A stretch of DNA of 64,000 nucleotides from Candidatus Thorarchaeota archaeon. Its GTDB lineage: Archaea > Asgardarchaeota > Thorarchaeia > Thorarchaeales > Thorarchaeaceae. Where the stretch lies: NCBI GenBank assembly GCA_048882385.1, contig JBHLRQ010000002.1:5581-69580 (forward strand), written 5' to 3'. Shown here piece after piece: positions 10,396 through 52,505 of this stretch; the first letter of the stretch is position 1; the number at the start of each line of letters is the position of its first letter. The position numbers were made by a program, and so were the translations under genes. The notes beneath the pieces are model-generated. The model saw nothing but the letters and a program-made list of their open reading frames with translations. It was not told the DNA's origin and made no database searches.

Positions 10396-10450
10396 TTCAA
10401 GAAACCATACTCGTCTTCATTGAAGCTCAATATGAAGCTTCTCACAATTA

Positions 10451-12544: not shown

Positions 12545-12841
12545 TCATACAAAGAGGGCATCTACAGCATCGATTGCGCCTTTAGCTTCTTCAGGACTAA
12601 ACTCTGGTAGTTCACCAATCTTAGCAATCTTGATGGTGACCAAGGCATCTTCATTTTTTGGTTCCATTACCCAAGACATGTCTATCCCAGGTTGTTCAGA
12701 AATAAACTGACCCAGCATCTCCAACCAAGCTTCTTTGACATCATCTATCTTAAGGTAGATGAATTCTATCAATGGAATGGTTATCTCTACTTTGAGAATG
12801 CGCCCGTCAACAATGTTGTAGTTTTCTATGTCCCAAGGCAT
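12545..12841 (-). CDS. hypothetical small acidic protein
   Basis: ORF convergent with the LarA-like gene and immediately downstream of the 1475-aa surface protein gene. Confidence 0.35.
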   Translation of the reverse strand: MPWDIENYNIVDGRILKVEITIPLIEFIYLKIDDVKEAWLEMLGQFISEQPGIDMSWVMEPKNEDALVTIKIAKIGELPEFSPEEAKGAIDAVDALFV

Positions 12842-12914: not shown

Positions 12915-15900
12915 TTATTGCTCCTTTTCTTTGTCTTCCTTCTTGGCTTCTTCTTCAGCTTCTTTTTGAAGGATAGACTCCACATCCTGCACAAATGCTT
13001 CCATTGGATCCAATTCAGGTTCTGGTTCTGCTTCGGGTTCTTTCACAACCTCTGCCACTTCCTCTTCCTCCTCTTTTGGTATCTCATATTCTAATTCTCC
13101 AATAGGTTTCAGCATCTCATCAGAACCGTCAGCCAAGGCTAATCCTTGTCTCTGAAGAATTGTCTGGATTCCAATTGGAACAATCACTCCTCTGTCTTGG
13201 AGATGTAGAAGTCTATCCAAGACCTGTGCTTCAGTCCTATCCAACATCTCACCGAGAGGTTTCAAGAGATTCTTTAGATAGAACTCACCTCTTTCGTCTC
13301 GTACAGCACCTATGTAATCAAGGATCTTTGCATCCAATTTGGAAACTTTCTGTGTTGGACCAAACCTATGAGGAAGATGCCACGCATAATTGAAAGCTGA
13401 ATTGAGAGTTGAAACAACCCATTCTGGATCAAAACAATCAACAACTCCAGTCCATCCATCAAGGTCCTGGTCATATTGATTCTCAAACAGCTCAACAAAG
13501 AACTGGAGTCGGTCTCTCAAGAGTGGTGTCATTTCTCCTCCCAAGATAAGGATTCCAATGATGTATTGTCCACTGTAGCTGTTCAAACGAAGTCCATGAT
13601 ACTGAATCTCTTCTAAAGTTCCGCGAACACCATCACCCTTTATCTCTCCGTAAACACTGGTTATTGCAGCGATGAATCCGCTGATCAAATCTGGTTGAAT
13701 CCGTTCCTCAGTGAATGGATGATAGAACACACAAGTCCCTCTATCAAGATATACTGCCATGAAGTGCTGGATTGTTTCAAGGTCTCTAAACATCTGAAGC
13801 TGGTTTTCGAGTCCCTTCTTTGCAGCCTTCTTTTTCGGTTTTACAGTCCTGTTATATCCAGTGGCCACAATACCTAGTAGAGCTATAGCAAATACAATCA
13901 TGAGGCCAATGCCGCTGGTGAAGAATGCTAACAGAAGAGAAAGTGGACTGACGCCGACTCCTGCAACTTCAGTCATCTCTGCATTCCATCTTGTTCTGCT
14001 CCCATCATAGATGGCACGTGCAGTCAGTCTGTCAACATTTCCAAAGGGAACTTGGAAACCAACTGATGCAACACCTTCTGTATTGGTGGTGTCAGTCATT
14101 GTCGGACCAGTGTATTGGATAACTGTGCCGTTGTCAAAATGCACAGAAACTTCGAAGCGTATCAATTCTCCCGGTATTGCGGGATTACCAGTATTGTTAG
14201 ACCTCAGAGTTGCTATGACTTCCATGAACTGACCAGCAATCAGGTCTCCATCGAATGTCACCTGTAGATAGACTGCTTCCTTGGCAAGAACTGTAAAGTC
14301 AGTCTGGCTCGTAGCAGTCACAGCGTATTGAGCAGAAGCAGAAACATCGATTGTGTAAGAACCGGGCGAAGATTCCAGAATAATCTCTATGGTATAGACT
14401 CCAGCTGAATATTCAAGAACATAGTCTGTTCCGTCCAATGTCATAGTGACAGTAGCGCTTGTGATTGCTGTATTGAATACTGAGTCTTCATAGGTCACTG
14501 TGACTGTGAGGTTCCACTCCTCATATTCAGAACTGACATGCACAACGTCAATTGTAGTTGTAGCACTTACGGTCAGATTGAGTTCCATTTGGTCAGAAAC
14601 ATAACCCGTCCTTTCGACGTACACATTGAATGTTTCAATTCCTCTTGTGTTGTCTGGGACAATATTGAAGGTGTATAGTCCTCCAGCTCCTGCCAATAAT
14701 TGATAGGGATTACCAAAAGCAATGAACGATACATTCGCATCTGTAATTGGGCTACCAGTCGAATCTGTCAGAGTGATGGTAAGAGGAACACTCGTGGCAT
14801 AGTCAGTAGTTTCAGAATCTCCAGACCACGAGCTACTGAGATTTGGAGTGTCTTCATATACAATGAAAGTTGCAGTATCGTTTCGCGTGGTGTACCCATC
14901 AGCTGTAGCTCTGACCATAATATCCCAAGCACCAAGGTAGTTAGATCCCAAAAGAGTAACTTCCCATTTTGCTGATATAGGGTTAAATACAAGATTAACT
15001 GGCGCTGATCCGTTGAATGTGACTCGTACAACAGTGTTACTATCAATTGGAACTGAACTATAATTATATGTGACTTGAATGAATAGACTCTCAATATATG
15101 AGATGTTCAGAGTAGATGGATTATACTCTACACCGAATACCTCTCCTGTCTGACTGCCAATTGTGATCATGATTGTGGCATCAAATTGGGCTTCGTATCC
15201 TGCTTTCCAAGCACTCACATTCAAAGCAAAAGTTCCTGGAACTCCTGTGAAGTTCTCACCAGTTAGTTCAATCCACCAAGTTTCTGTTAGTGGGTCCCAA
15301 GCCATGTCATATGTCGACCCCTGGAATGTTACATTGACTGTTGCGCTTGTGATTCTTGTATCATCAAGCATTCTATAAGTCACAGTGAGATTTGTACTAT
15401 CCAAATATGCAATGTCATTTGTGTTTGACCAGCTCCAGTTGAGAGCCCGGGTCTCATGAATCAGCGTTACACTTACTGTTAGACTGAGGTTCTCAAGAGC
15501 AGATCCCTCAGCATAGATGTAAAGATTATAAACTCCATCAGCCATGGAAGTGGTCGAAACTGTTGCTGTCCATCTACCTCCACCACCGTCAATTAGCGAG
15601 GTGTTACCGGATCCAAAATCATAGGAAACTGCAGCAAGAGAAATATCAAGTCCTCTGGCTGGGAAAATTTGGTCAAAGTTCACTCCAATGTCAAATGTGT
15701 TTTCAGTAAAAGCTGATATGACCATATTATCTGCAACCAAAGTAGTTGCATAATAGACAAAAACATCTGCTACAGAGTATCCAGCTTCTGTTCCATTTGT
15801 CCAAAATACTTCAATTGAATGTGTCCCGTTCCCAGTGGTATAGGCACTTATGTCCCAGATGAATGAAGACAAACCCTCAGTTGCAGTTGTTTCAACGGGG

Positions 15901-17342
15901 GAATAAATTTGACTACCAGACTGAAGGACTGTTAGATTTGTTGTTCCACCATTCAAAGGATTACTCAAGCTATCCTCGATTGTTGCATTGATATCAAGAT
16001 CTACAAGGATACTAACTTGTCCACCTACTACTGAATCATCGGATCTGTCGAAAATGTCGAGAGCAGTGATGTAATTAGGTGCTGATGATGACAATGTCCA
16101 AGCTCCATCAGTCATTGCAATACATTGAACGGTTGTACCATATTTCGTATTTGTGCCAACAATTGGAGTCGATCCATTATACAGATTTATCGGATTCCAG
16201 TCTGACTGTACTGTGAAGTTGAGAAACCGATTGAGGGTACCAGAAACGGAAGGATAGGTAATAGTTGTAGAAGAGTTCCATTCTACATTGGATAAAGGCG
16301 TATCTGAAAACCAATTTGTAAAAGCTGTACCTGTTTTCTTGTACCAGAGAGTTAAATCATAATCCACATACGCAGACTGGTTAGTGTTCAATTTTATTGA
16401 TGTAATATTAGCTAGTTCATTTGTAAATGTCCATGAAAATCCAGTCATAGTACTCGAATTCGCTTGTAGTGATAGACTCTCCGGATTGAAGAATTGGAGT
16501 GCTGTATCAGAAGTTCTATTCCATGGAATATAGGTATAGTTGAAGAGAGGTTCAAGAGTGGCAGGCTGCCATACACCATTTCCCATAATGTAGGAATTGA
16601 ATACTCCTGGTGCATCCTCTGAACCCCAGTAGATGCTTGGAAGCGTTGGGATCGGTAATCCTGCTTTCTTAAGTAGTGAACCATTGATTATTGCCCAGTA
16701 TATTGAGTTTGCATCAAGCTCTGCAGATTCTCCTGGAATGGTTGACCACAAAAAGACGGCATCATGAGCTGTCATGTTAACTCGAGACGTGATTGCAGAT
16801 GATGTTGTGTAGTCGCTCATAATAGAGAATGATGCATTTCCTCTTGTAGACGGAGTATAGTCATCGGTACTATAGTATATTGAGTAATTTTGTAATGAAC
16901 CATTGAACGGTTGATTATAGAACCCTTGAGCTAGTTGGGAATAATTTGTTGGGCCTGATTCAAGTATCCAAAAGAACGGATTTTCATAAGTGACTCCCAA
17001 TACTTCTCTTTCAGGTGCAGCCTTTAGACTACTCACATCCATTTCTACTTTATAGATATGCCAGCCCGGTATAAGATATCCAGAAAGGTCAACGTCGCCC
17101 GAATGCACAACTGTGTTGGAATATGTGTTTAGAATTGTTGTCTGCAAAGTGTTCAGAGCTCTTGACATATATGCTGATGTCGGAAGTGTGACTCCTGCTT
17201 GACCCGCTGATGACAGAGTAAGCGTAGGTTCTTGAACTCTGTTGGTGATTGAAACAGGACTGGTAATATCAAACTGATTTATTGTTGTAGGAATGGTCAA
17301 CATAAATAAGACAATTACCAACGAAATGGTCGTCTTTCGCAT
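12915..17342 (-). CDS. large secreted, glycosylated surface protein with a single C-terminal TM and a 312-aa cytoplasmic domain
   Basis: N-terminal signal peptide (MRKTTISLVIVLFMLTIPTT), very high density of NxS/T sequons, and an N-terminal about 900 aa paralogous to the adjacent 3056-aa protein (shared YSQLAQGFYNQP, IYYxTDDYxPxxRGNAS). A TM segment (LSLLLAFFTSGIGLMIVFAIALLGIVATGY) is followed by a basic stop-transfer KPKKKAAKK, then a cytoplasmic domain and an acidic tail. Confidence 0.7.
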   Translation of the reverse strand: MRKTTISLVIVLFMLTIPTTINQFDITSPVSITNRVQEPTLTLSSAGQAGVTLPTSAYMSRALNTLQTTILNTYSNTVVHSGDVDLSGYLIPGWHIYKVEMDVSSLKAAPEREVLGVTYENPFFWILESGPTNYSQLAQGFYNQPFNGSLQNYSIYYSTDDYTPSTRGNASFSIMSDYTTSSAITSRVNMTAHDAVFLWSTIPGESAELDANSIYWAIINGSLLKKAGLPIPTLPSIYWGSEDAPGVFNSYIMGNGVWQPATLEPLFNYTYIPWNRTSDTALQFFNPESLSLQANSSTMTGFSWTFTNELANITSIKLNTNQSAYVDYDLTLWYKKTGTAFTNWFSDTPLSNVEWNSSTTITYPSVSGTLNRFLNFTVQSDWNPINLYNGSTPIVGTNTKYGTTVQCIAMTDGAWTLSSSAPNYITALDIFDRSDDSVVGGQVSILVDLDINATIEDSLSNPLNGGTTNLTVLQSGSQIYSPVETTATEGLSSFIWDISAYTTGNGTHSIEVFWTNGTEAGYSVADVFVYYATTLVADNMVISAFTENTFDIGVNFDQIFPARGLDISLAAVSYDFGSGNTSLIDGGGGRWTATVSTTSMADGVYNLYIYAEGSALENLSLTVSVTLIHETRALNWSWSNTNDIAYLDSTNLTVTYRMLDDTRITSATVNVTFQGSTYDMAWDPLTETWWIELTGENFTGVPGTFALNVSAWKAGYEAQFDATIMITIGSQTGEVFGVEYNPSTLNISYIESLFIQVTYNYSSVPIDSNTVVRVTFNGSAPVNLVFNPISAKWEVTLLGSNYLGAWDIMVRATADGYTTRNDTATFIVYEDTPNLSSSWSGDSETTDYATSVPLTITLTDSTGSPITDANVSFIAFGNPYQLLAGAGGLYTFNIVPDNTRGIETFNVYVERTGYVSDQMELNLTVSATTTIDVVHVSSEYEEWNLTVTVTYEDSVFNTAITSATVTMTLDGTDYVLEYSAGVYTIEIILESSPGSYTIDVSASAQYAVTATSQTDFTVLAKEAVYLQVTFDGDLIAGQFMEVIATLRSNNTGNPAIPGELIRFEVSVHFDNGTVIQYTGPTMTDTTNTEGVASVGFQVPFGNVDRLTARAIYDGSRTRWNAEMTEVAGVGVSPLSLLLAFFTSGIGLMIVFAIALLGIVATGYNRTVKPKKKAAKKGLENQLQMFRDLETIQHFMAVYLDRGTCVFYHPFTEERIQPDLISGFIAAITSVYGEIKGDGVRGTLEEIQYHGLRLNSYSGQYIIGILILGGEMTPLLRDRLQFFVELFENQYDQDLDGWTGVVDCFDPEWVVSTLNSAFNYAWHLPHRFGPTQKVSKLDAKILDYIGAVRDERGEFYLKNLLKPLGEMLDRTEAQVLDRLLHLQDRGVIVPIGIQTILQRQGLALADGSDEMLKPIGELEYEIPKEEEEEVAEVVKEPEAEPEPELDPMEAFVQDVESILQKEAEEEAKKEDKEKEQ

Positions 17343-17468
17343 ATTGATACCTCTATATCATTCGGGACAGTTTGTGGCGTCCGATTATGAAGTCACATCC
17401 TTGTCTATTACATGTTAGTGGGACGGACAACGAGAATTATGAAATTCGTTATATCAATCTATCCTGCT

Positions 17469-20400
17469 TCAGTCCCCACCACGGAAACGAATTCTTCGAA
17501 GCTTTCCATCTCTGACCTCTTCAAAGGCTGGGTTCGATTCAAGGAGTTTCTTCACCATTGCTCCCGCCTTACTGGTAGTTATCTCAAGCGATTGAGCAAT
17601 CTGTGCTCGAGTGAGTCCTTCTATGTTTCCTCTGATTTGATCCTGAAGTAAGTCCATTTCGCCTTTAGGTGGAGGAGTCATTGAGGAGGGAGCAACAACT
17701 GGTTCAGCAATAGAAACTGATTCTGTTCCTCTCCCTCTTCGTCGTCGTAATACTATCAGACCAGCAATTGATCCTCCTCCTCCCACAATAATTGTGAGAG
17801 TCAGCGGATCTTCAAAGAGTGATATTATGAAAGAAAGCATGTCCATTCCACCTGGAGAAACTTCTCTAATTTCTGTGTTAGAAACTGCAGGCCACTCGCC
17901 AATGCTGCCTTCAAACTCCGCCCATACTGTTAGTTTCGTTGCATCAGATGGAACATTGAACTCAAGTAAATCACGAGCTACTTCGATGATCTCATGAGGT
18001 GACGCTTGTCCTCTTTCAATGATAATATGAACAGCTACTTCGAAACCGGTAATAGAACCTGATTCATAACTCGCCTGAATAACTATCTGAATTGTTTGAC
18101 CTGCTTGTACTTCTTCATCTACTTCAATCACAAGTGTGTACAATATCTTTGGTACGATATCAAGCTGAATCTCTCCGGTTTCTGTTTCGCAATCAATAGC
18201 TGATGCAGTGAAGTTGAGAATATACGATCCTGGAGCCAATGACCCAAGCCAGATATCAACAGAGTATTCTTGAGAATCTGAATCGTAGAATAATGGATAT
18301 TGAAATCCGACTAATTCAATTGTGATTTCTCCCCAATCGACTATAGTAGCATGAGGCCCATCGTATATCTGAATTGCAACGGTTATTGTTTCGTTTTCGA
18401 ACTGCTCGATCTCGTCCACAAAGGACAAAACAATTGGTAGTTCAATAATCTCGATCTCTACACCGCCATTACCTGCGATGTATCCTGTTCTAGAGAATGT
18501 CGCATTGAGCTGATAGATTCCTATATGTAGAGCATCATTGTCTATTTGGATGTTGTATGTGCCGTTTCCAAAATCAACAATAGAGAAGGTGTCTGGCCAG
18601 ACGACAGCTGGCTCATATCCAGAAATACCCACCAAATTCTTGTTGTCCATCCATGTGAAGGACACCGTAATCGAATCAAATGGAAAGACCTGATAAAGCA
18701 CGTCATCAAAATCAACACTAGTTGGAATTGCATCGACAGTCATGTCGAATGAGTTTGTGTCCGGCTCAAAGCCAAATGCATCGACAGACACAACTACTGA
18801 ATGCATTCCTAGACCCGCAGTTGATCCTGTGATGGTGAAAGTCCAATGATCAGTGACCCATAGGACTGATTGGTCGATACTGTCAATAGTCACTGTACAG
18901 GTCCCGCCTGTCACTGAGGTGGTGTTCAGAAGCTGGTAGTAGATATTTAGAGTCATACTTTCGTCATAATAGATGGTTGCATTCGATATTATGATAGTGA
19001 GATTTGTCGGAGCTAAGGATATTGTCAATAGTCTAGAATCCCAGCCATCAGCATAACCTGTCTTGTTTGCAGTCACCGTAACATTCCAAACTCCTATACC
19101 AATATCACTTGCTTTCATGCTGAAGTGCCACTTTTTGTCAAATGCACTATATGTAAGGGTGTAAGGTGTGCCATTAATCGAAACTTCAACAGTTGCACCG
19201 ACAATTGGTTGATAGTCTTCAGTATAGACGACTGACAGATTTACAGTATCTATGAATGAAGCCTCTAAACTCAATGGCTCCCAAGTGGCAATAAAGGAGT
19301 TTGCTGCAAGAGTCACATTGATTCCTATGGTTAAGTTTGTCTGATACTGATATCCATAAAGCCATGCATTGATAGTTGCAATTCGTTCTCCAATACCAAG
19401 TTCTTGACCTGGAATTGATACACTCCATATATCTGCAGAATAAGTCAGGTTGTAAAATCGACCGTCAATACTCACATTGACAATGGCTGTTTCAGGGACA
19501 TCCCCTTCATAGAAAGTATAGTCCACAGTCAAGTTAAGTAAATCAGTATACTCGATTGTAACATTGGATGGTTCCCAAGTTACAGCTAGAGGATCAGTTG
19601 AAACCGGATTTACTGTGAGTATTATGCCCAAGGACTCACTGTACTCGTATCCATATACTTGAGCTCGAATATCAGCAACATGACCGCCCAATGACAGATT
19701 GTTTCTCGTCAAGGTAGTAATCCAAAGGCTTCCGTCGAAGGTCAGGCTGTATGTATTCGTTCCATCAATGGTGATGTTTACCACTGTGCCCACCGAAGGA
19801 ACCGTAACACCAGTTCCATTGTAATAGTAGTCTACAGTAAGGTCAATATCCTGAAGATAGTCAACAACAGTTGAGGACCAGACAATTGTGAGGTTTGTCA
19901 AGGCTTTCTCTATAGTGAAGCTTATCGATAGTGATATGACCGGATCATATCCAAACTTGCTGAAGTTGGCCCAGACATTATGCAGTCCAAGGTCGAATGT
20001 GTTGTTGAACTCAATCCAGTATGCACCAGCAGTTCCATGGAGTATATACTCTGTACTATTCACATAGACTAACTTCGTGGTTGCATTTTCAATTGGCGAA
20101 CCTTGGGAATCTAGAAAGTCAAACGATAGAATTACACTCTCAGTCCAGTCAATGGTATACGACGTCCATGATGGAGTGACAGTTGGGGAGTCTGTTCTCA
20201 AAATAAGTGATGTTGAGGGTAATTGTGCTACGTAGACAGGAGCAGATGCTTGAATATCGACTGTAAATGTTCCTAGGCCTGGTGGAATTTGATCGCCATC
20301 AAAACGGACCTGATATGCACCTGCAGTATCATTCCAAGCAAGGGTCCATGGCGGATACACTCCAATTGTTGCATTAACTATGGCTCCAAGAATGTCTGAG

Positions 20401-23400
20401 CCGTTACTCATCCTATAGACGACTGATAAGACAGTGTACTCGACATAGGTAATGTCGTTCCCGTTTGTCCAAGATACATCAATGGTTGTTGGGTCTCTAG
20501 CAAGGGTAAGACTGGATGAATTCGTGGCATCCACATAACCATAGAGTGTTGCTTCAATCAATATTGAATGTGTCCCAAATCCTGGTGGAGAATCACTCCC
20601 ATTGAACCTGATACTGTACATGCCTGCTGTTGAGTTCCAATCTAATACCCAGGTCTTCACTCCAATAGTCACATTTACACTCGCATCCTGAATGGATGAC
20701 TTATTGGACATTCTGAAATCAACATAGAGGACAGTATAATCGAAAAATGTTACATTGTCATAGTTCGGAGCTCCCCATGAGGTCACAACTGTTGTTGGCT
20801 CTGGAACTATTGTGAGGTATAATGTCCAATCTGGCCAAGGATCAAAACCATAGGCTGATGCATTGACAACTAGGTTAAATGTATCAAATCCAAGCGAACT
20901 ATCGCTACCATTGAATTGAATTCTGTAGGTTTCACTACTAGGATGCCATTTGAGATCCCAGAGTTCCCCATTAACTGTCACATTCACAGTTGCTCCAGCA
21001 ATTGACACTCCATCAGAGGTAGTATAGTTTACTTGAAGTACCGTGAAACCAACATAGGTTATTGTACTTCCCCCTAGCAGTTTACTTTCTAAATTGACAT
21101 TCTCACTGATTATTGTCAGATTATAGTCTATGTTGACTGTCATTTCATAACCTGGCTTCACCCCTCTAATCGATAGTCCAAATGAACCTAGTCCTGGCCA
21201 ACCTATGGAGTCATTCTTGAAGGTAATCTCATAAAGACTACTAGTTGAATTCCAGTCTAGAAACCAAGGACCTGATCCAGCTATCGTCACATCTACTTCT
21301 GCATCTGGAATCTCATTTCCATCACTTGATGTATAATTGACAAGAAGAGTTGTTGATTCAACAAATGTGATTGAATGACCATTGGACCAACTTGCTGTGA
21401 TCGATGTTGGTTCATCATTTATGGTCAAGAATTGTGATAAATTAGTTAAACCAACATGATTGGCTTTCCAAGCCTTGATGAGTAACTGATGTGTACCTAT
21501 TCCTGGAGGTTCATCTGTTCCCAACCATGTGTATTCATACGCTTTAGATGTATCATTCCAGATTGCTAGTCTAGTTATCACATGCGTTATATTTACCAAT
21601 GCACCAGAAATCGGTGTTCCATTACTCATAAGATAAAAGATTCTGATTTTTGTGGATCCAATATACGTAATAGTATCACTTGGGTCCCATTCAAAGACAA
21701 AATGTGTTTCTTCAATATGAATTTCCAATTGCTCGTCTGTGTTTGTTATGTTGATGTATCCAAATTTCGATGCTCTAATTTCCACTGTGTGAGTTCCATA
21801 ACCTGGAGGGTCTTCATCTCCAGAAATATAAGCCTCGTAAGTTTCATTATTCGGATTCCAGATGAGTTCCCAGAATCTTCCGTTTATTGTGACATTAACA
21901 ATAGCATCCGGAATTGAATCAAAATTACTATCTTGATATCTGACAGAAAGCAAGGTTTCTTGTACGTAGCTTATGTTGTATCCATTTGACCAGTTGATGA
22001 CAATACTAGTTGGTTCTTTATCTATGGTTAGGATCTCATCTTCAATGAAATGTGTTTCAAAATCATCTTTCAGAGCGTATATTTCAGTAGTGTGGATTCC
22101 AAAACCAGGTGGATTATCAGTTCCATAAAATGTGTGCTCATAATATTCTCCAATCAGAGATAATGGGAATATTGTGCCATCAATTGAGATGTAAACTGTC
22201 GCACTATCAATTATAGTTCCATTGAACATAGAATACCTTACTCTCAGAGTTGTTTCTTCTATGTATGTAATCGTATCAGTATTCGACCACGTGATTTCTA
22301 CTAAGGTAGGAATGACTGGTAAAGTTAGTTTCTTTGTATCACCCGTCTGACTCACATATCCATACTTCGAAGCTTGTATCGTCAGATTATGTGTTCCCAC
22401 TCCTGGAGGCCAATCTGAGCCATTGAATCTGACTTGGTACAACAAAGCAGTTTCATTCCAAACCATATCCCACGAGTTTGTGCCGATTGTAACGCTTAAC
22501 GTTGCATTTGTGATTGTGGTTGTATTACTCATACGATAATCAACAAAAAGGAATGTGTGTGCAAAGTAGGTCAAATCATTGCCATTAGACCAACTAATTA
22601 CCAAGTCTGTAGATTCTAAATTTACAGTCAAAGTTTCATCAGTGTTATCTTGTTGCTCAAATCCATTCAATGTTGCATTGACAGTCACTGGGAATGTTCC
22701 AACACCAATGTCTGGGTGATTACCACTTAGAATGAGCATGTACATCATTGAGAATTCGTTCCAATCGAATATCCATTCCCTAGAGGCTATTGTCGCATTG
22801 ATACGGGCACCTAGGACCGGCGAACCATCACTCATGGAGAAGTTTGCATAGAGCACTGTATTTCCAACATACGAAATTGTGTCAGACACCCACCACGAGA
22901 GTTCCAGCGATGTATTTTCAATTTCAATGGTGAACCAGTAGGTGTCGTTGGTTTGGGTCTGAAATCCAAATTTAGATGCGCCAATAATAACATTGTACGT
23001 TCCGATATCAGGTGGATTATCAGTCCCATTGAATGTTATTTCATATGCCAGATTGCCTACATTCCAATCGAGAGTGAATAATGTTGATCCTATCAATGCT
23101 GTAACATTTGCATCGATTGCAATCGGAGTTGTATCATTCATTCGGTACATGATTGATAACGTTGTTTGTTGAACATAGGTGATTGTAGTTCCATTAGACC
23201 ATGATATGTCAATACTTGTAGGCTCCACAGTGATATTGAGATAGGATGCTTTCGACCTATCATTATATCCGAATAGATCTGCAAGAACAACAACGCTGTG
23301 ATTACCAAAGCCCGGAGGGTCGTCTGATCCATTCAAAGTGATGCGATAAGTTTGGGACCCTTCATGCCAAATCATTTCCAGAGGTGATGCTCCACCTAAA

Positions 23401-26400
23401 CTCACATTGACCATGGCATTTCGAACTGCTGTTCCATTTGCCATTGTGAAATTTGCAGACAAGATGGTTTGCTCAATGAAGGTTATGTCATTCCCATTTG
23501 ACCAGATAAGAACTAAATCTGTTGTTTCTTCGCGGAAAATCATTTGGGATATATTGTTCTTTTCGACGAATCCAAACAGATCCGCTTGTATTGTGAGAGT
23601 ATGTATTCCAAATCCTGGAGGACTATCAGCCCCAGAAAACCTTACCCTGTATGTCTGAGTTGGGCTATCCCACTCCAAATTCCATGGGGGATAGACACCA
23701 ATTGTTACATTGACAACTGCTCCTAATATTGGAGAACCATCACTCATAGTGTAATTTGCAATAAGATAGGTTTCTTCAACATATGAGATGTCATTACCTG
23801 ACAACCAGGACACAACAAGAGCAGTGGGTTCTTCGTTTATTGTAAATGGAACCAAAAACTCATTCTGATCAATATGTCCATGTTTACCAACCAAAATTGT
23901 TAGACTGTGAGTATCAATTCCAGGTGGAGCGTTTCCTTCAAACACATATTCATAGACTGAACCATTAAACACTAGTATGAATGGATCTAGAGTTCCAATT
24001 GTGACATTGACTAATGCGTCAACAACAGGTGACCCATTGCTCAGCGTGTAGTTCACAATAAGTGTTGTAGACTCAACATATGTGATGACATTCCCATTAG
24101 ACCACGTGTAGGTCATGGATGTGGGTTCAAGAGATATGGTCAATGAAACACCAGTTTCATCTTTGGTTGCGTGACCGTGTTTATCTGCCATGATTGTAAG
24201 AATATGACCGCCAAAACCGGGAAGTTCAGCATCGCCATTAAACACATACTCGTAAGTTGCACCATTTAAAGTTAGATTGTAAAGGTCTGTTCCAATGGTA
24301 ACATTCACGATTGCGCCAACAACAGGAGAACCATCACTCATCGTGTAGTTCACAATCAATGTTGTACTCTCAAGGTACGTAATGTCATTACCATTGATCC
24401 ACTCATATGTCATTGTAGTTGGTTCTTCTCTAATATGCAGAGTTTGCATTGTATCGGATTGCGCTTTGTGGCCCGCCTTCCACGCTTCAATGGTGAGGTC
24501 ATGTAAACCAAAACCTGGAGGAACATCAGTTCCGTTGAAGGTGATTCTGTAAGCACTAACATCATCCCAGGTCAATGTCCAATTCTTTGCATTGATTGTA
24601 ACATTTACTGTCGCACCCGGAATGGGAGTGGATCCTGTCACTCGATTGTAGTAGACCACAAGTTCTGTTGTTTCGATGTATGTGATATTATTGCCATTGG
24701 TCCATTCAACGGTTAATGGTTCAGTATCATGAATTAAATCCACACTGACCTGAATGCTCTGGTTTTGGAGTGCAAATCCCTCAGTATAGATGTCAACTAG
24801 ATATGTCCCTGGATTCTTTCCCGTGGTTGGGATTGTAGCAGTCCATGTACCGTTGTTGTGGTCAGTCATACTGGTATTAGTTCCGCTGTCGAAAGAGTAC
24901 ACTGCCTCTATAGCAGCACCATAAAGCCCTTGGGGCGTGAATGTGTCTTCAAAGTAGACTCTCACCTCCAAGGTACTCTCTGTGAAACCATCGATTTCAG
25001 AATCCGTGGCTGTCAAAGAAGTTGGATAGTAAACTACCAGTTCTTTCACCAAGTAGCCTGCATCAGTTCCATTAGCCCAAGAAACTTCGATTGTGAATGC
25101 ACCATTATCCGATGTTGTAGTGTCGATATTCCAGAGATAATTAGTATGTCCATTACTCACACTCTGGTTTGATGGGGACCATATGACTGATCCGCTCTTG
25201 GTAATCGTAAGATTTGCTAGTCCTGTATTCACAGGGTCCGAGTCTTGCTCCAATATGGACATATTGACATCGACATCAGCAAGAATTGAAGAAAGACTAC
25301 TCAACTCATTGTCATTTGAGGAATCATATGTGTGAACTGCTATAAGGTGATTAAATGATGAAGCTTCTAGACGCCATAAACCATCCGTCATACTTGCGCA
25401 AATCACCGTTGTACCAACTACAACGTAACTCGTATGATTTGTCATTGGAGCTGAGCTTTCATAGAGTCCTGTAATTATCCAACTATTTGCTTTTGACATA
25501 TTGAGATATTTCGATATTTGTCCTGACACACTAGGATAAGAAACACTAGTACCTACACTCCAATGTACTAATCCACTTGAAGGAGTGATTTCCCAAGAAG
25601 TTGTTGTTGAAGATTGTCTTTCATAGAACAGAGTCATATTATAGTCGAAGTAGACGGATTGGTTTGTATCAAATGAGATGCTTGTTATGTTCTTGTTCGC
25701 CGATGAAAAAGTGAAGCTGGATGTAGTGATGGCTGTCGTATTTCCTCTCAAGTCTACTTTTTGGGGAGAAGAGAATACTAACGGCGCATCTGATGTCTGA
25801 TTCCATGGTATGTATGAATAATTCAACAAAGCTTCAAGTGACAATGATGCCCATCCACCAGGACCTCTCTGATATGATCCAAAAGTTCCTGCACTATTTT
25901 CTGCGCTCCAGTAGATAATTGGATATGTCGGGAAGGGATCTCCTGCTTTTGATAAAGTCGAACCATCTATTACAGCCCAATACACAGTATCTGCAGACAT
26001 TGATGCATTTCCTCCTGGAGATGTAGTCCAAGAGAGAACGCTGTCTGATGCTGTCATATTTACTGGAGTTGTGATATCCGTAGCACTGTCCAAATCTGAT
26101 GAGCTTCCACTACGAACGACTAATGAAGCATTTCCTCTAATTAGTGGATCATAGTCGTCTGTAAGATAGTAGATTGAGTAGTTGACAAGAGCTCCATCAT
26201 GAGGTTGATTGTAGAATCCCTGCGCAAGCTGCGAATAAAAGAGAACTCCCTCTTCAAATATCTTGAAATTATAATTCTGAGGAGTGACTCCAACTACTTC
26301 TTTTTCAACTGCCCCCTTGATACTAACTGTATCTATTTCTATCCTGAATAGTTTCCAGCCAGCAACTTGATAGTTTGACAGGTCAAGCATTGTGTTATGA

Positions 26401-26639
26401 GTGACTGTATCTCCATATGAGTTGAAAATCTCCAGACGTTGTCCTGTGAATGTGCGTTCGAAAAACATTGTTGCGGTCTGTTCGCTACCGCCTCCTGAGA
26501 TAGAAGCTGAACTACTCCTATTATCTGGTAGGATTGGTTTCTCATCCGATAGGATTAGTGTTCCCTCTGGATGTCCTGTTTCCTGAATTGAAGACAGGAG
26601 CAAGACTGCAATGACCAACAAGATTACAGATCTCTTCAT
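17469..26639 (-). CDS. giant (3056 aa) secreted, glycosylated, repeat-containing surface protein with a C-terminal TM and a short cytoplasmic tail
   Basis: Signal peptide (MKRSVILLVIAVLLLSS), an N-terminal domain paralogous to the 12915-17342 product, about 20 or more tandem 95-100-aa Ig-like repeats, then a TM segment (LSFIISLFEDPLTLTIIVGGGGSIAGLIVL), RRRRGRG, and a 90-aa tail. Confidence 0.75.
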   Translation of the reverse strand: MKRSVILLVIAVLLLSSIQETGHPEGTLILSDEKPILPDNRSSSASISGGGSEQTATMFFERTFTGQRLEIFNSYGDTVTHNTMLDLSNYQVAGWKLFRIEIDTVSIKGAVEKEVVGVTPQNYNFKIFEEGVLFYSQLAQGFYNQPHDGALVNYSIYYLTDDYDPLIRGNASLVVRSGSSSDLDSATDITTPVNMTASDSVLSWTTSPGGNASMSADTVYWAVIDGSTLSKAGDPFPTYPIIYWSAENSAGTFGSYQRGPGGWASLSLEALLNYSYIPWNQTSDAPLVFSSPQKVDLRGNTTAITTSSFTFSSANKNITSISFDTNQSVYFDYNMTLFYERQSSTTTSWEITPSSGLVHWSVGTSVSYPSVSGQISKYLNMSKANSWIITGLYESSAPMTNHTSYVVVGTTVICASMTDGLWRLEASSFNHLIAVHTYDSSNDNELSSLSSILADVDVNMSILEQDSDPVNTGLANLTITKSGSVIWSPSNQSVSNGHTNYLWNIDTTTSDNGAFTIEVSWANGTDAGYLVKELVVYYPTSLTATDSEIDGFTESTLEVRVYFEDTFTPQGLYGAAIEAVYSFDSGTNTSMTDHNNGTWTATIPTTGKNPGTYLVDIYTEGFALQNQSIQVSVDLIHDTEPLTVEWTNGNNITYIETTELVVYYNRVTGSTPIPGATVNVTINAKNWTLTWDDVSAYRITFNGTDVPPGFGLHDLTIEAWKAGHKAQSDTMQTLHIREEPTTMTYEWINGNDITYLESTTLIVNYTMSDGSPVVGAIVNVTIGTDLYNLTLNGATYEYVFNGDAELPGFGGHILTIMADKHGHATKDETGVSLTISLEPTSMTYTWSNGNVITYVESTTLIVNYTLSNGSPVVDALVNVTIGTLDPFILVFNGSVYEYVFEGNAPPGIDTHSLTILVGKHGHIDQNEFLVPFTINEEPTALVVSWLSGNDISYVEETYLIANYTMSDGSPILGAVVNVTIGVYPPWNLEWDSPTQTYRVRFSGADSPPGFGIHTLTIQADLFGFVEKNNISQMIFREETTDLVLIWSNGNDITFIEQTILSANFTMANGTAVRNAMVNVSLGGASPLEMIWHEGSQTYRITLNGSDDPPGFGNHSVVVLADLFGYNDRSKASYLNITVEPTSIDISWSNGTTITYVQQTTLSIMYRMNDTTPIAIDANVTALIGSTLFTLDWNVGNLAYEITFNGTDNPPDIGTYNVIIGASKFGFQTQTNDTYWFTIEIENTSLELSWWVSDTISYVGNTVLYANFSMSDGSPVLGARINATIASREWIFDWNEFSMMYMLILSGNHPDIGVGTFPVTVNATLNGFEQQDNTDETLTVNLESTDLVISWSNGNDLTYFAHTFLFVDYRMSNTTTITNATLSVTIGTNSWDMVWNETALLYQVRFNGSDWPPGVGTHNLTIQASKYGYVSQTGDTKKLTLPVIPTLVEITWSNTDTITYIEETTLRVRYSMFNGTIIDSATVYISIDGTIFPLSLIGEYYEHTFYGTDNPPGFGIHTTEIYALKDDFETHFIEDEILTIDKEPTSIVINWSNGYNISYVQETLLSVRYQDSNFDSIPDAIVNVTINGRFWELIWNPNNETYEAYISGDEDPPGYGTHTVEIRASKFGYINITNTDEQLEIHIEETHFVFEWDPSDTITYIGSTKIRIFYLMSNGTPISGALVNITHVITRLAIWNDTSKAYEYTWLGTDEPPGIGTHQLLIKAWKANHVGLTNLSQFLTINDEPTSITASWSNGHSITFVESTTLLVNYTSSDGNEIPDAEVDVTIAGSGPWFLDWNSTSSLYEITFKNDSIGWPGLGSFGLSIRGVKPGYEMTVNIDYNLTIISENVNLESKLLGGSTITYVGFTVLQVNYTTSDGVSIAGATVNVTVNGELWDLKWHPSSETYRIQFNGSDSSLGFDTFNLVVNASAYGFDPWPDWTLYLTIVPEPTTVVTSWGAPNYDNVTFFDYTVLYVDFRMSNKSSIQDASVNVTIGVKTWVLDWNSTAGMYSIRFNGSDSPPGFGTHSILIEATLYGYVDATNSSSLTLARDPTTIDVSWTNGNDITYVEYTVLSVVYRMSNGSDILGAIVNATIGVYPPWTLAWNDTAGAYQVRFDGDQIPPGLGTFTVDIQASAPVYVAQLPSTSLILRTDSPTVTPSWTSYTIDWTESVILSFDFLDSQGSPIENATTKLVYVNSTEYILHGTAGAYWIEFNNTFDLGLHNVWANFSKFGYDPVISLSISFTIEKALTNLTIVWSSTVVDYLQDIDLTVDYYYNGTGVTVPSVGTVVNITIDGTNTYSLTFDGSLWITTLTRNNLSLGGHVADIRAQVYGYEYSESLGIILTVNPVSTDPLAVTWEPSNVTIEYTDLLNLTVDYTFYEGDVPETAIVNVSIDGRFYNLTYSADIWSVSIPGQELGIGERIATINAWLYGYQYQTNLTIGINVTLAANSFIATWEPLSLEASFIDTVNLSVVYTEDYQPIVGATVEVSINGTPYTLTYSAFDKKWHFSMKASDIGIGVWNVTVTANKTGYADGWDSRLLTISLAPTNLTIIISNATIYYDESMTLNIYYQLLNTTSVTGGTCTVTIDSIDQSVLWVTDHWTFTITGSTAGLGMHSVVVSVDAFGFEPDTNSFDMTVDAIPTSVDFDDVLYQVFPFDSITVSFTWMDNKNLVGISGYEPAVVWPDTFSIVDFGNGTYNIQIDNDALHIGIYQLNATFSRTGYIAGNGGVEIEIIELPIVLSFVDEIEQFENETITVAIQIYDGPHATIVDWGEITIELVGFQYPLFYDSDSQEYSVDIWLGSLAPGSYILNFTASAIDCETETGEIQLDIVPKILYTLVIEVDEEVQAGQTIQIVIQASYESGSITGFEVAVHIIIERGQASPHEIIEVARDLLEFNVPSDATKLTVWAEFEGSIGEWPAVSNTEIREVSPGGMDMLSFIISLFEDPLTLTIIVGGGGSIAGLIVLRRRRGRGTESVSIAEPVVAPSSMTPPPKGEMDLLQDQIRGNIEGLTRAQIAQSLEITTSKAGAMVKKLLESNPAFEEVRDGKLRRIRFRGGD
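17940..24725 (-). repeat. intragenic tandem array of about 290-bp coding repeats (Ig-like domain repeats) within the giant surface-protein gene
   Basis: The protein repeat consensus is EPTSMTYxWSNGNDITYVESTTLIVNYTMSDGSPVxxAxVNVTIG...W.L.W.....Y...FNG.D.PPGFG.H.LTI.A.K.G. Copies are well conserved over about residues 640-2050 and progressively diverged toward the TM segment. Coordinates are approximate. Confidence 0.65.
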
Positions 26640-34984: not shown

Positions 34985-34997
34985 GTGGTATCCTCTT

Positions 34998-50445: not shown

Positions 50446-51336
50446 CTATTCGAAATCTTCGTTCACTGTGTAGATTTCGTCCAGTTTGCTAGCTGCAAGA
50501 ACCGAGGCTCCTACCAAAATATAGGACTCTATTGCAGTAACATAGTCAAACGGAGATCCTGGACAGTAGTTTACGAAGCTCCAGAATAGAATTCTGATGA
50601 AAAACAATAGGACTCCTAGAAACAAAAAGATGAGTGGTCTTACCATCAGTCCATTTCGCAGAGTCCACATGAGGCTCCCAAGTGCAATGAGAATCACACC
50701 GAGTCCCACAACCAAAGGGATTGAAATGGCTGTGTAGAGAATCTGAAGTGGATTCAGCACGGCTACAACAACCAGACTGGCTAGTCCTGCTATAGAAGCC
50801 AAAGTAACAACGAATTGAAGTATTGAGTCTGTATTTGAAATGCCTAATGCAGAGTTTGACGAGCGCAGATATCCTAAAACTCCTAGTCCCCACAAGAGCA
50901 GCGCTGGCATCTGCACAAGACCCACTGCGAAACAAATTTCGCTGCTGTTTCCTGTATAGTGGATGATCCCGCTTGCGATCTCTGATAGACTGAATACAAC
51001 AAGCCCCAATGCCATCCAAACATTCAATGAATGAAACCTGTCATCCTTGACGAGAGATTCATGACCAAAAGCATTCAGACCTAGAACTCCAAGCACAAGT
51101 GCAACTGTTGGAGATAGTAGTGTAACTATTATTAGAAGACTGGAAATGCTCCCTGCCCAATAGAGAATCAATGAAACAACTAGAATGGCAAGACCTGAGA
51201 AGATAATCAACCCTGTGTTCAGCCATCCTACTAACGACACTTGATTCCTGCTCCTCGTGAACACTGTCAGATTGATTGAGAATTCCGTTTTGTATATTTT
51301 GCTGATATTGGTCTTCAAACGGAGAGTGTTTCCCAT
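50446..51336 (-). CDS. polytopic membrane protein (unknown function)
   Basis: 7-8 hydrophobic helices; overlaps the end of the upstream 396-aa ORF by 22 nt, indicating an operon. Confidence 0.5.
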   Translation of the reverse strand: MGNTLRLKTNISKIYKTEFSINLTVFTRSRNQVSLVGWLNTGLIIFSGLAILVVSLILYWAGSISSLLIIVTLLSPTVALVLGVLGLNAFGHESLVKDDRFHSLNVWMALGLVVFSLSEIASGIIHYTGNSSEICFAVGLVQMPALLLWGLGVLGYLRSSNSALGISNTDSILQFVVTLASIAGLASLVVVAVLNPLQILYTAISIPLVVGLGVILIALGSLMWTLRNGLMVRPLIFLFLGVLLFFIRILFWSFVNYCPGSPFDYVTAIESYILVGASVLAASKLDEIYTVNEDFE

Positions 51337-52505
51337 TCAATCTCATATACGGTACTTGGATACTGTTGCTCGATTTCCCCCTTAGTATTAGTTACTATTC
51401 TGTTAATCGGGTTTGCTCCTGTGAGATCCTTTACTCTCCGAGTGATGAACTGTGTTAGGACTCGAAATCCGTCATTTAGGACAAAGGGTGCAATTGATCC
51501 TTTGATTGTTGCAGCAGTAAGTGAGCTTCTCATCTCGATGTCAACACCCATTTCGAGCGTGATATATGCCAACCATGGGTAATTACCAACCAACTCTTTC
51601 CTAGATACGAAAAAGATCTTACGTGTTGCATTAAGTCCCACAATCATCGCGCAGTTTCTAAGTAATGATTGAAGGGCGGCTATGTATCTAACAGCTACAG
51701 CATGCGCTGGAGTAACAAGTTCAATCATTCTTCTTCTCTCAAGAAGTGCAACATCATCCAAGAATCTCCTCAAGTCTGATGTACGAAGTCTTTCTGCAGC
51801 AATTGAAAGTGGCGTTTCGCCATCGATCTCCGTTAGTGCTCGCACAGAATCTGGTGATAGTGTTTCATCTGGATAGGTTGTTTGAGCGAGGGTTGCTTGA
51901 TAGATGTCATCAGGTTTGACGGGATTGTAAATAGTGATTGCATTCTCCCAAAGTGCTTCTGCGGCAATATTCATTGCGACTTCTAAAGGAACTTCTAAGA
52001 AACTAGCTGCATCCTTTACAGAGCATATTTCTGGAATAAGCCTCAGGAATGACTGGACATCAGGTCTCTTCGTGTAGTATTCCCACTCTGGCCTGACTGT
52101 CATCATTGTTTCAGGTTTTATTTTGTCTCTGATGAACTCATCAATCATACTTGCTTCAAAACGAGTATGTACTGCTAAATCTAGGTCGACCCATCTAAGT
52201 ATACCGAACTGCTCCTCAAACAGTTTAATGATACGTTTCAGCTTGTCTCTGATGTACGCACTGTCCTCCTTTAGGGAAATTGCACCAAGCGTCCATTCCC
52301 CAAACTCGACAACTATCCTGTAATTAGCTCCTTCAAAGGCTCTAGCTTGAGATTTTACCGACCTTGTAGCCTCGTCAAAAAAAGATGTCATTGCCACTAA
52401 GAAGGAGGATAAGAGTTGAGGATCAAATGCAGACTCGGTGAAGTCCTTGTGATATATGCAGACACCTGTATCTCTGCGGATTATATACAGGCTGTTAATC
52501 TCCAT
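51315..52505 (-). CDS. cytoplasmic protein with an N-terminal longin/roadblock-like alpha/beta domain homologous to the cytoplasmic tail of the 1475-aa surface protein
   Basis: The N-terminus LYIIRRDTGVCIYHKDFTESAFDPQLLSSFLVAMTSFFDE...IRDKLKRIIKLFEEQF aligns with YLDRGTCVFYHPFTEERIQPDLISGFIAAITSVYGE...LRDRLQFFVELFENQY of the 12915-17342 product. Confidence 0.45.
   Translation of the reverse strand: MEINSLYIIRRDTGVCIYHKDFTESAFDPQLLSSFLVAMTSFFDEATRSVKSQARAFEGANYRIVVEFGEWTLGAISLKEDSAYIRDKLKRIIKLFEEQFGILRWVDLDLAVHTRFEASMIDEFIRDKIKPETMMTVRPEWEYYTKRPDVQSFLRLIPEICSVKDAASFLEVPLEVAMNIAAEALWENAITIYNPVKPDDIYQATLAQTTYPDETLSPDSVRALTEIDGETPLSIAAERLRTSDLRRFLDDVALLERRRMIELVTPAHAVAVRYIAALQSLLRNCAMIVGLNATRKIFFVSRKELVGNYPWLAYITLEMGVDIEMRSSLTAATIKGSIAPFVLNDGFRVLTQFITRRVKDLTGANPINRIVTNTKGEIEQQYPSTVYEIEWETLSV

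Follow-up and report, generated by a model that had tools for sequence, protein, structure and literature searches.

Among known prokaryotes, none is more closely related to eukaryotes than the Asgard archaea, whose cell envelope is poorly understood. The window analysed here, a stretch of 64,000 nucleotides from a Candidatus Thorarchaeota genome, holds two adjacent genes for giant predicted surface proteins that continue past a membrane helix into the cytoplasm, which raises the question of what kind of proteins these are and what their cytoplasmic domains would do. On balance, we favour the view that both are glycoproteins that serve in the envelope or in adhesion, and that a partner in the cytoplasm docks onto their tails. 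A conserved, folded cytoplasmic domain is unusual among archaeal Ig-rich, membrane-anchored surface proteins, and the pair most likely represents a known kind of protein with a new tail architecture. The two genes are:

12915..17342, minus strand: gene A, predicted type-I membrane glycoprotein of 1475 aa (open reading frame and translation)
17469..26639, minus strand: gene B, predicted type-I membrane glycoprotein of 3056 aa (open reading frame, translation and domain scan)

The two co-oriented reading frames of 1475 and 3056 aa described in the initial annotation were recovered with exactly these coordinates, both on the minus strand. From the N-terminus, A consists of a putative signal peptide, a head, about five stalk repeats, a transmembrane helix, a longin-like domain, a winged helix and an acidic tail, and B of a putative signal peptide, a head, about 23 stalk repeats, a transmembrane helix and a winged helix-turn-helix (wHTH) tail. 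They are tandem paralogues, as had been proposed: residues 56-921 of A align with residues 57-928 of B at 39.5% identity (BLASTP, E=1e-171), and the motifs YSQLAQGFYNQP, IYYxTDDYxPxxRGNAS and PWNRTSD/PWNQTSD occur in both translations. The common N-terminal region, put at about 900 aa, is borne out as homology over about 870 aa but not as a single unit, being composed of a head of about 575 aa and the first three repeats.

Orientation in the membrane was read from the hydrophobic segments at the two ends of each protein:

26574..26639, minus strand: signal-peptide-like leader of B (residues 1-22, MKRSVILLVIAVLLLSSIQETG), a hydrophobic N-terminal segment
17748..17804, minus strand: transmembrane helix of B (residues 2946-2964), followed by RRRRGRG (hydropathy scan)
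13851..13952, minus strand: transmembrane segment of A (residues 1131-1164), followed by KPKKKAAKK (hydropathy scan)

At both N-termini a basic n-region precedes 14-18 aa of hydrophobic sequence (hydropathy and translations), and the AF2 model of the N-terminus has a helix at residues 2-15 with a disordered linker behind it. Lysines and arginines follow the transmembrane segment, and N-glycosylation sequons lie solely on its N-terminal side, with none found in a scan of both cytoplasmic tails; the predicted topology is thus type I with the C-terminus inside, in agreement with the earlier proposal. A transmembrane hairpin in A, which would place the tail outside, was considered and rejected on the grounds of the hydrophobic stretch of about 30 aa, the single AF2 helix, the trailing lysines and arginines and the sequon-free tail; in the model, the transmembrane and juxtamembrane regions of A form one continuous helix. 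The claim of sizeable cytoplasmic domains held in that both tails contain folded domains, but the tail of B is short, at 92 aa against 311 aa in A. Both proteins would be exported by the Sec route and then retained in the membrane by the C-terminal helix.

The extracellular parts are divided as follows:

15468..17210, minus strand: head of A (residues 45-625), a fast-evolving string of beta-sandwich domains
24744..26471, minus strand: head of B (residues 57-632), homologous to the head of A (BLASTP, 39.5% identity; profile)
13968..15467, minus strand: stalk of A (residues 626-1125), four HMM-detected repeats and a degenerate remainder
18768..24743, minus strand: stalk of B (residues 633-2624), 20 beta-sandwich repeats of about 100 aa (iterated HMM)
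17820..18767, minus strand: membrane-proximal region of B (residues 2625-2940), about three degenerate beta-rich repeats (sequence pattern)

The repeat expansion noted in B was confirmed with an iterated repeat HMM, which found 20 units, in register and repeating about every 100 aa, over residues 633-2624, each at E values between 1e-21 and 1e-37; the same HMM found four units in A at residues 625-1006. Weaker beta-sandwich-like matches flank the arrays on both sides in both proteins, and in B the repeat HMM also matches weakly at residues 2654-2720 and 2727-2816. The first repeat of A is a beta-sandwich in its AF2 model, and the ectodomains, of 1100-2900 aa in all, consist of tandem Ig-like beta-sandwich domains, about 11-29 of them. 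Their structural matches include archaeal and bacterial surface-layer proteins (Haloferax csg, SlaB, Sap, SbsC), bacterial adhesins (SiiE, 2yn3/2yn5, TMt 0.43; invasin, 1cwv; Lap, 6xi3) and the eukaryotic proteins NCAM2, ICAM-1, PECAM-1 and MAG. The head had no specific lectin or enzyme match.

Sequons in the ectodomains outnumber those of shuffled sequences 2- to 2.7-fold, with 35 in A against 17.4 +/- 3.5 after shuffling (z=5) and 106 in B against 39.3 +/- 5.5 (z=12), so that the high density first remarked on is real. Their conservation within the repeat also held up, since 13 of the 20 B repeats have a sequon at the NVT position; four further columns carry sequons in 6-8 of the 20. Both ectodomains are probably N-glycosylated. 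The stalk of Ig/MG-like beta-sandwiches (about five repeats in A, about 23 in B) would hold the fast-evolving head off the surface, at a height of about 25 nm in A and about 100 nm in B if the domains form a rod at about 4 nm each, and the head may be the contact surface toward other cells, substrates or viruses.

Below the membrane the two proteins differ. The tail of A is made up as follows:

13458..13787, minus strand: membrane-proximal alpha/beta domain (residues 1186-1295), tentatively longin/roadblock-like
13131..13388, minus strand: winged helix (residues 1319-1404; AF2 pLDDT 89-95)
12918..13130, minus strand: acidic disordered linker, net charge -21 (disorder and a terminal helix in the AF2 model)
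12951-13019, minus strand: conserved C-terminal helix motif DPMEAFVQDVESILQKE (residues 1442-1464), in which the acidic linker ends

Homologues share the DPMEAFVQDVESILQKE motif, as do about 20 type-A representatives, and the membrane-proximal domain occurs in 48 of 52 long-tailed representatives of the family, Lokiarchaeota and Helarchaeota relatives among them, starting at a median of 20 aa past the transmembrane helix. This domain is more strongly conserved than any other part of the protein: its identity across Thorarchaeota is 73-96%, whereas the head reaches 38-47% and the stalk 26-70%. That the cytoplasmic module is so much more constrained than the ectodomain suggests that these surface proteins are wired to the cell interior.

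The fold of the domain is tentatively assigned as longin/roadblock-like from a model of low confidence (pLDDT 44-56), in which the order of elements is b-(b)-a-b-b-b-a (E71-74, H93-110, E120-124, E127-132, E138-143, H149-165); this pattern is kept in an alignment of 27 diverse members. When the model was searched with Foldseek, about 20 of the top 50 matches were longin/roadblock proteins at E values of 0.01-0.3, among them AP sigma subunits, Sec22b, TRAPP and MglB, the best being Sec22b (1ifq, TMt 0.64, prob 0.97) and an AP-3 sigma subunit (TMt 0.55), with no match at E<1e-3. The two-domain sensor-plus-HTH regulators RhlR, SdiA and CodY were listed as well, at low TM-score. Against Pfam, just one of the 27 members had a match to Fuz_longin_1, at E=0.047, which falls short of assigning the domain to a curated longin or roadblock family, and full-length A and B and their tails gave nothing above cut-offs. 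The longin-like profile had no match to PDB sequences at E<=10, and the tail profile had no meaningful one; hhalign comparison of the former with SEC22B, AP2S1, YKT6, LAMTOR2 and DYNLRB1 sequences gave probabilities below 1% and scores never above those of CheY and thioredoxin controls. A homology search with the longin-like profile returned eight matches, none with a Pfam annotation. The domain shares with MglB, Ragulator LAMTOR2-5, SR-alpha SRX, AP sigma, TRAPP, Sec22b/Ykt6 and an Asgard Roadblock protein (9jue) a predicted b-b-a-b-b-b-a pattern at a membrane, but differs from these platforms in showing no sequence-level match and in resting on a low-confidence model. In the literature searched, a longin-like domain fused behind the transmembrane helix of a surface protein was not found.

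The tail of B is a single feature:

17472..17747, minus strand: cytoplasmic tail of B (residues 2965-3056), a winged helix-turn-helix of the HTH_24/MarR type

Searched alone, this tail had no Pfam match. Homologous tails occur in nine other type-B representatives, and as a family they match HTH_24 in seven of eight members (best E 6.7e-8) and MarR_2 in six of eight; the family profile also matches the wHTH of SloR, a DNA-binding domain (E=2e-4). Both tails therefore contain a winged helix, in B by family match and in A by the AF2 model. That of A has a weak Pfam match to the NirdL-like HTH (PF22451, E=0.002, below the cut-off), and its homologues are labelled Lrp/AsnC family by some sources and Lrp family regulators by JGI. 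Because hhalign detected no similarity between the tail of B and the winged helix of A, homology of the two is not claimed. Two variant type-B tails were seen: P0085 has a degenerate longin-like stretch by HMM match, followed by an apparent B-type wHTH, and P0086, as read from its sequence, has an apparent degenerate longin-like stretch, a winged-helix stretch like that of type A and a B-type wHTH.

All homologues of A and B that were found come from Asgard archaea, including Lokiarchaeota and Helarchaeota relatives, with several paralogues per genome, and a literature search found no paper describing the family. The A-type gene is stable: in every one of the Thorarchaeota sampled it sits at one conserved, syntenic locus, and the B-A tandem is present at the syntenic locus in 11 other Thorarchaeota genomes. 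One small neighbour accompanies it:

12545..12841, minus strand: open reading frame of 98 aa, directly downstream of A on the same strand

This frame, which has no Pfam match, lies right behind the A-type gene at 37 of 39 Thorarchaeota loci (55-87% identity) and may be co-transcribed with A. Its linkage is not proof of function, since the whole neighbourhood is syntenic. The other neighbours (LarA, DedA/VTT, CN-hydrolase, POR and DUF2299) are all housekeeping genes, and the reading of a function from operon neighbours was rejected for this reason, the region being simply syntenic.

How the tails would act is the central question. In the docking model that we favour, the alpha/beta domain of A, about 20 residues below the membrane, and its winged helix would dock a conserved cytoplasmic partner, B having retained the winged helix-turn-helix alone on its cytoplasmic side. 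If longin/roadblock platforms are taken as the model, the partner could be a small GTPase; none is encoded within the window. Another candidate is a soluble paralogue encoded farther along:

51315..52505, minus strand: soluble protein of 396 aa that starts with a paralogue of the longin-like domain of the A tail

This protein matches the longin-like profile (E=2e-16) at residues 20-118 of the stop-to-stop reading frame, or about residues 2-100 of the protein, and has no transmembrane helix, no Pfam match and no meaningful PDB sequence match. Judged from this sequence relationship, it is a candidate cytoplasmic partner of the A tail.

A different use of the winged helices is conceivable. The likeness of these domains to DNA-binding families fits a transcription factor at least as well as it fits partner docking, and A and B might be membrane-tethered transcription regulators, in which the ectodomain senses contact or load, the alpha/beta domain senses a ligand or partner, as such modules do in one-component regulators, and the wHTH binds DNA either while tethered (as in ToxR and CadC) or after juxtamembrane or intramembrane cleavage (as in Notch and anti-sigma systems). 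We regard this as rather unlikely, although it draws on the retention of a winged helix in both paralogues, the HTH_24, MarR_2 and SloR matches of the B-type tails, the confident model of the A winged helix with its weak Lrp/AsnC-type match and JGI naming, and the RhlR, SdiA and CodY entries in the Foldseek list. The B winged helix, moreover, carries a net charge of +3 and a basic wing (KLRRIRFR), and a GGGG stretch in the transmembrane helix of B could favour intramembrane cleavage. In A, however, the winged helix is just +2 and is flanked by the longin-like domain at -9 and the acidic tail at -21, charges that are unfavourable for DNA binding, and the strongest conservation lies in the alpha/beta domain rather than in the winged helix. 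Winged helices frequently bind proteins in archaeal and eukaryote-like systems, and among the housekeeping neighbours there is no evident target operon. Nor does an ectodomain of such length and so many beta-sandwiches look like the sensor of a one-component regulator; to our knowledge, no known sensor of this class resembles a giant beta-sandwich array. ToxR, CadC and TcpP also join an extracytoplasmic domain to a cytoplasmic winged helix through a single transmembrane segment, but ToxR-type proteins have an N-terminal, OmpR-type wHTH inside the cell (N-in) and a small periplasmic sensor, whereas A and B are N-out/C-in, with a wHTH of HTH_24/MarR/Lrp type and a giant Ig array outside. They thus fall outside the ToxR/CadC type by their reversed orientation and by the class of their wHTH.

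The ectodomains can also be read without any signalling role, as parts of a purely structural S-layer or sheath in which the heads form a lattice or canopy, the repeats are pillars, and the tails serve anchoring, sorting or assembly. The closest parallel in layout is the "colossal" S-layer protein of Pyrobaculum (PySLP), a transmembrane-anchored envelope protein with 19 Ig-like domains, in whose homologues the transmembrane helix is followed by a short basic tail with a final lysine (bioRxiv 10.64898/2026.08.21.746120). Like PySLP, Sulfolobus SlaB and Haloferax volcanii csg (PDB 7ptp), A and B have a (here predicted) signal peptide, a distinct N-terminal region (conserved in PySLP), a tandem Ig-like pillar, dense N-x-S/T sequons and a single C-terminal transmembrane helix. 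The structural matches to csg, SlaB, Sap and SbsC, the density of about one sequon per 30 residues, similar to that of known archaeal S-layer proteins, and the one conserved syntenic locus in all Thorarchaeota sampled point the same way. Even so, a purely structural role is unlikely. The known proteins have a short basic tail at the end, or a lipid anchor, whereas A ends in a folded tail of 311 aa, under far stronger constraint than its ectodomain, and B in a wHTH of 92 aa. A head that forms a lattice would be expected to be conserved, yet the head is the most variable part (38-47% identity), hypervariable where that of the known proteins is conserved, and the occurrence of several paralogues per genome also speaks against such a role. 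We know of no S-layer lattice in Asgard archaea, and no ordered S-layer is seen in those in culture. The giant bacterial adhesins (SiiE, LapA/LapF, Bap and the BIg arrays of invasin and intimin) likewise project a distal binding region on long arrays of beta-sandwiches of about 90-100 aa, but are T1SS- or T5SS-secreted or anchored in the outer membrane or cell wall, without a cytoplasmic domain; A and B, with a predicted Sec-type leader, a C-terminal transmembrane helix and cytoplasmic domains, do not belong to the T1SS/T5SS class.

That the two genes are artefacts of repeat collapse, chimeric assembly or pseudogene decay can be dismissed: although most database homologues are fragments from short contigs and the contig of GCA_048882805.1, which has a protein identical to A on record, stops within gene B at 1806 aa, both frames, of 4.4 kb and 9.2 kb, are intact, and the age of the repeats (mean 33% aa identity, with a lone DNA self-match of 115 nt at 80%) excludes collapse. 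The B-A order is seen again at 11 loci, and independent assemblies contain type-A orthologues of about 1300-2170 aa as well as type-B orthologues that are full-length, at 2554-3362 aa, and have 16-23 repeats.

A and B also resemble eukaryotic type-I glycoproteins, namely the Ig-superfamily adhesion receptors NCAM, L1CAM, ICAM and PECAM and receptors of the Notch type, which share with them a tandem Ig/fn3-like ectodomain, one transmembrane helix and a conserved cytoplasmic tail. The tails of those receptors bind intracellular partners, and any signalling by A and B is hypothetical; the likeness is architectural, with no detectable sequence homology and with different tail domains. A more far-reaching version holds that the family comprises Asgard-wide Ig-rich receptors, in Thor-, Loki- and Helarchaeota, whose longin-like and winged-helix module recruits small GTPases, longin/roadblock regulators or the cytoskeleton upon contacts of the hypervariable head. 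This is doubtful, and we consider it improbable in that full form; if true, it would make the family a prokaryotic counterpart, possibly a forerunner, of eukaryotic adhesion-receptor signalling, and would offer a candidate molecule for the "complex surface proteins" on Asgard cells. Cultured Lokiarchaeia have no ordered S-layer but complex protruding surface proteins that have not yet been named, and these are thought to be relevant to the cell-cell contacts invoked in eukaryogenesis (PMC9834061). If the tail merely anchors the protein or merely binds DNA, the pair would still represent a new archaeal envelope architecture, of less far-reaching consequence. For protruding surface structures of this kind in Thorarchaeota the family supplies specific candidate genes, whose products may connect the surface of the cell with its interior.

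Two adjacent minus-strand genes encode paralogous giant proteins, predicted to stand at the cell surface and each composed of a head, a repeat stalk, a transmembrane (TM) segment and a cytoplasmic tail:

26639-17469, minus strand: gene B, 3056 aa (ORF and translation)
17342-12915, minus strand: gene A, 1475 aa (ORF and translation)

The ORFs are separated by 126 nt. The motifs quoted in the initial annotation were found in both translations alike, and the N-terminal region that it described as shared was recovered by BLASTP as A56-921 against B57-928 (39.5% identity, E=1e-171), beyond which numerous weaker alignments match repeat to repeat. An iterated HMM seeded with one repeat unit showed that B carries 20 repeats in register, spaced at ~100 aa (residues 633-2624; E 1e-21 to 1e-37 each), and A four (residues 625-1006). 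Weak HMM matches suggest additional, degenerate beta-sandwich units at ~437-622 in the head and, in B, close to the membrane at 2654-2816. Because the B repeats are divergent (mean identity 33%, maximum 67%) and the gene B DNA compared with itself gives a single match of 115 nt at 80%, assembly collapse was excluded as their source. An identical copy of gene A is present in one public assembly (GCA_048882805.1; locus L001, JBHLRG010000019.1), whose contig ends within gene B, so that 1806 of its 3056 aa remain; this break reflects the difficulty of assembling the locus and does not call its reality into question. Since the majority of database homologues are likewise fragments, the family is under-represented and mis-annotated in MAGs.

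Both proteins begin with a basic and hydrophobic leader and have a single C-terminal hydrophobic segment (1131-1164 in A, 2946-2964 in B), with KPKKKAAKK behind it in A and RRRRGRG in B. The A ectodomain contains 35 N-x-S/T sequons (17.4 +/- 3.5 in shuffles) and the B ectodomain 106 (39.3 +/- 5.5 in shuffles), and neither tail contains any. Of the 20 repeats in B, 13 have a sequon at the NVT column and 6-8 have one at each of four further columns. These features agree with a predicted type-I topology (N-out/C-in) and with predicted N-glycosylation of both proteins.

A structure model of A residues 1-720, covering the head and first repeat and built on an alignment of 40 sequences, was all-beta except for the leader (mean pLDDT 88). 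Foldseek matched it to the MG1-6 arrays of complement C3/C5, A2M, 7ptp, SiiE, titin and Sap (E ~1e-8 to 1e-6), with no match of this region to a lectin, enzyme or other specialised domain. The modelling and structure search that the initial annotation had recommended for the repeat and the shared region returned a beta-sandwich fold. Given the all-beta model and these matches, the shared "N-terminal domain" is also built as a series of beta-sandwiches, and head and stalk differ in sequence family, not fold.

In an AF2 model of A residues 1125-1475, the TM segment runs on as a long juxtamembrane helix, followed by a poorly resolved alpha/beta domain (residues 1186-1295; pattern b-(b)-a-b-b-b-a; pLDDT 44-56), a confident winged helix (1319-1404; pLDDT 89-95), an acidic disordered linker and a confident terminal helix. 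A sequence search with the tail found 34 homologues at 57-94% identity, and all those with a named organism were Thorarchaeota. The linker ends in a conserved motif:

12951-13019, minus strand: C-terminal helix motif DPMEAFVQDVESILQKE, A residues 1442-1464

Some homologues carry two copies of this motif, and its resemblance to the N-terminal DDPLEAFMAEVED segment of human DDX42 (E ~5) is probably due to chance. The alpha/beta domain had no Foldseek match in the PDB at E<1e-3; ~20 of its top 50 matches were longin/roadblock proteins, including AP-1/2/3 sigma, Sec22b (TMt 0.64), TRAPP subunits, zeta-COP, MglB and Asgard Roadblock. Sequence methods gave no support for this identity; the domain is tentatively assigned as "longin/roadblock-like", a label somewhat more likely than not to be right.

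A head profile searched against 1.84 billion cluster representatives returned 212 proteins, 87 with E<1e-30 and many full length, the best 150 of which were scanned for domain architecture. Type A proteins (~1300-2170 aa) have a head, 3-11 repeats, TM, longin-like domain, winged helix and usually the C-terminal motif, and type B proteins (2554-3362 aa) have a head, 16-23 repeats, TM and usually a ~90-aa wHTH tail. Remote relatives, found in MAGs of Helarchaeota, Lokiarchaeota and unclassified Asgard archaea, resemble the head over its inner half alone, and behind the TM carry a longin-like domain and a winged-helix-like stretch, sometimes followed by a coiled coil and zinc ribbon. Tails of 530-975 aa in P0169, P0178 and P0180 (Lokiarchaeota and other Asgard) run from longin-like and winged-helix-like parts through a long coiled-coil/acidic region to a C-terminal CPYC...CxxCG zinc ribbon; those of P0166 and P0177 are helical-repeat or coiled-coil instead. 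Among the 52 representatives that combine a TM with a tail of 150 aa or more, 48 contain the longin-like domain, which begins a median of 20 residues past the TM.

Species-representative genomes yielded 39 loci, all in Thorarchaeota or Promethearchaeota MAGs and syntenic throughout (POR, CN-hydrolase, DUF2299; B-type where present; A-type; 98-aa ORF; LarA; DedA/VTT). Since 11 of these loci hold the B-then-A tandem and a more distant clade has a lone type-A gene (6-8 repeats) at the equivalent position, the preferred reading of B is a lineage-specific tandem duplication of A, followed by gain of stalk repeats and loss of most of the tail. Orthologue identity is 73-96% in the longin-like domain, 44-90% in the linker and winged helix, 31-60% in the B tail, 26-70% in the stalk repeats and 38-47% in the head, where orthologues are no more alike than the A/B paralogues. 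Evolution is thus fastest in the outermost part, and the membrane-apposed cytoplasmic domain is almost frozen.

Several other genes of the window were noted:

12545-12841, minus strand: 98-aa acidic ORF that has a GGAGG motif of its own and lies 73 nt downstream of gene A
51315-52505, minus strand: soluble 396-aa protein, N-terminally paralogous to the longin-like domain of the A tail (E=2e-16)
50446-51336, minus strand: 296-aa ORF, overlapping the 396-aa gene by 22 nt
9643-11179, minus strand: two tandem DedA/VTT-domain membrane proteins, downstream of the A/B pair
26766-27320, minus strand: DUF2299 protein, directly upstream of the A/B pair

The 98-aa ORF has no Pfam match. At 55-87% identity, it stands directly behind the A-type gene in 37 of the 39 Thorarchaeota loci; it may interact with the A tail, or its position may merely reflect synteny. 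The 396-aa protein continues past its longin-like part for ~280 mostly helical aa and, given the 22-nt overlap, may form an operon with the 296-aa ORF; no Pfam or PDB sequence match was obtained for either. The DedA/VTT and DUF2299 positions are kept across Thorarchaeota, and the DUF2299 gene adjoins the single A-type gene upstream where a genome lacks B. The window also encodes two tandem paralogous M28-family peptidases (33167-36833, minus strand; 605 and 611 aa), a ZPR1-type zinc-finger and jelly-roll protein (52640-53308, plus strand) and a 398-aa WD40 beta-propeller protein (59074-60270, plus strand). ZPR1-type and WD40 proteins are eukaryote-like types common in Asgard genomes.

The most economical reading is that A and B are envelope glycoproteins whose variable heads would be carried outwards by Ig-like stalks, far longer in B than in A, and that the A tail would attach them to a conserved cytoplasmic partner. 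On the model of longin/roadblock platforms, this partner could be a small GTPase; another candidate is the soluble 396-aa protein, whose N-terminus is a paralogue of the tail domain. The main rival, a membrane-tethered transcription regulator, is suggested by the winged helices of DNA-binding type in both tails and keeps some probability, above all for B. With the B tail of the window alone there is no Pfam match; of 8 members of its family, HTH_24 matches 7 and MarR_2 matches 6, and a profile of this family picks up the SloR wHTH (E=2e-4). However, the A winged helix lies in an acidic context, the alpha/beta domain is under greater constraint, and the sheer size of the ectodomains also argues against such a role. 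Purely structural S-layer proteins would fit the layout of the Pyrobaculum "colossal" S-layer protein, but this would leave both the large constrained tail and the variable head unexplained, and cultured Asgard archaea lack ordered S-layers.

Some type-B proteins have longer tails of 218-316 aa (P0085, P0086; loci L025 2-2431 and L034 3-2141). In P0085 a degenerate longin-like stretch (HMM match) precedes a B-type wHTH, and for P0086 a reading of the sequence alone suggested a longin-like stretch and an A-type-like winged helix; in architecture, such tails look intermediate between those of A and B.

No description of the family was found in the literature searched, and its database homologues are named only "hypothetical protein" or carry an automatic "Lrp family regulator" label. 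Archaeal surface proteins that are Ig-rich, TM-anchored and glycosylated are a known kind, and A and B share the Ig-rich, TM-anchored layout. The novelty of this family lies in the conserved cytoplasmic module of alpha/beta domain and winged helix to which such a protein is fused, a combination restricted to Asgard archaea.
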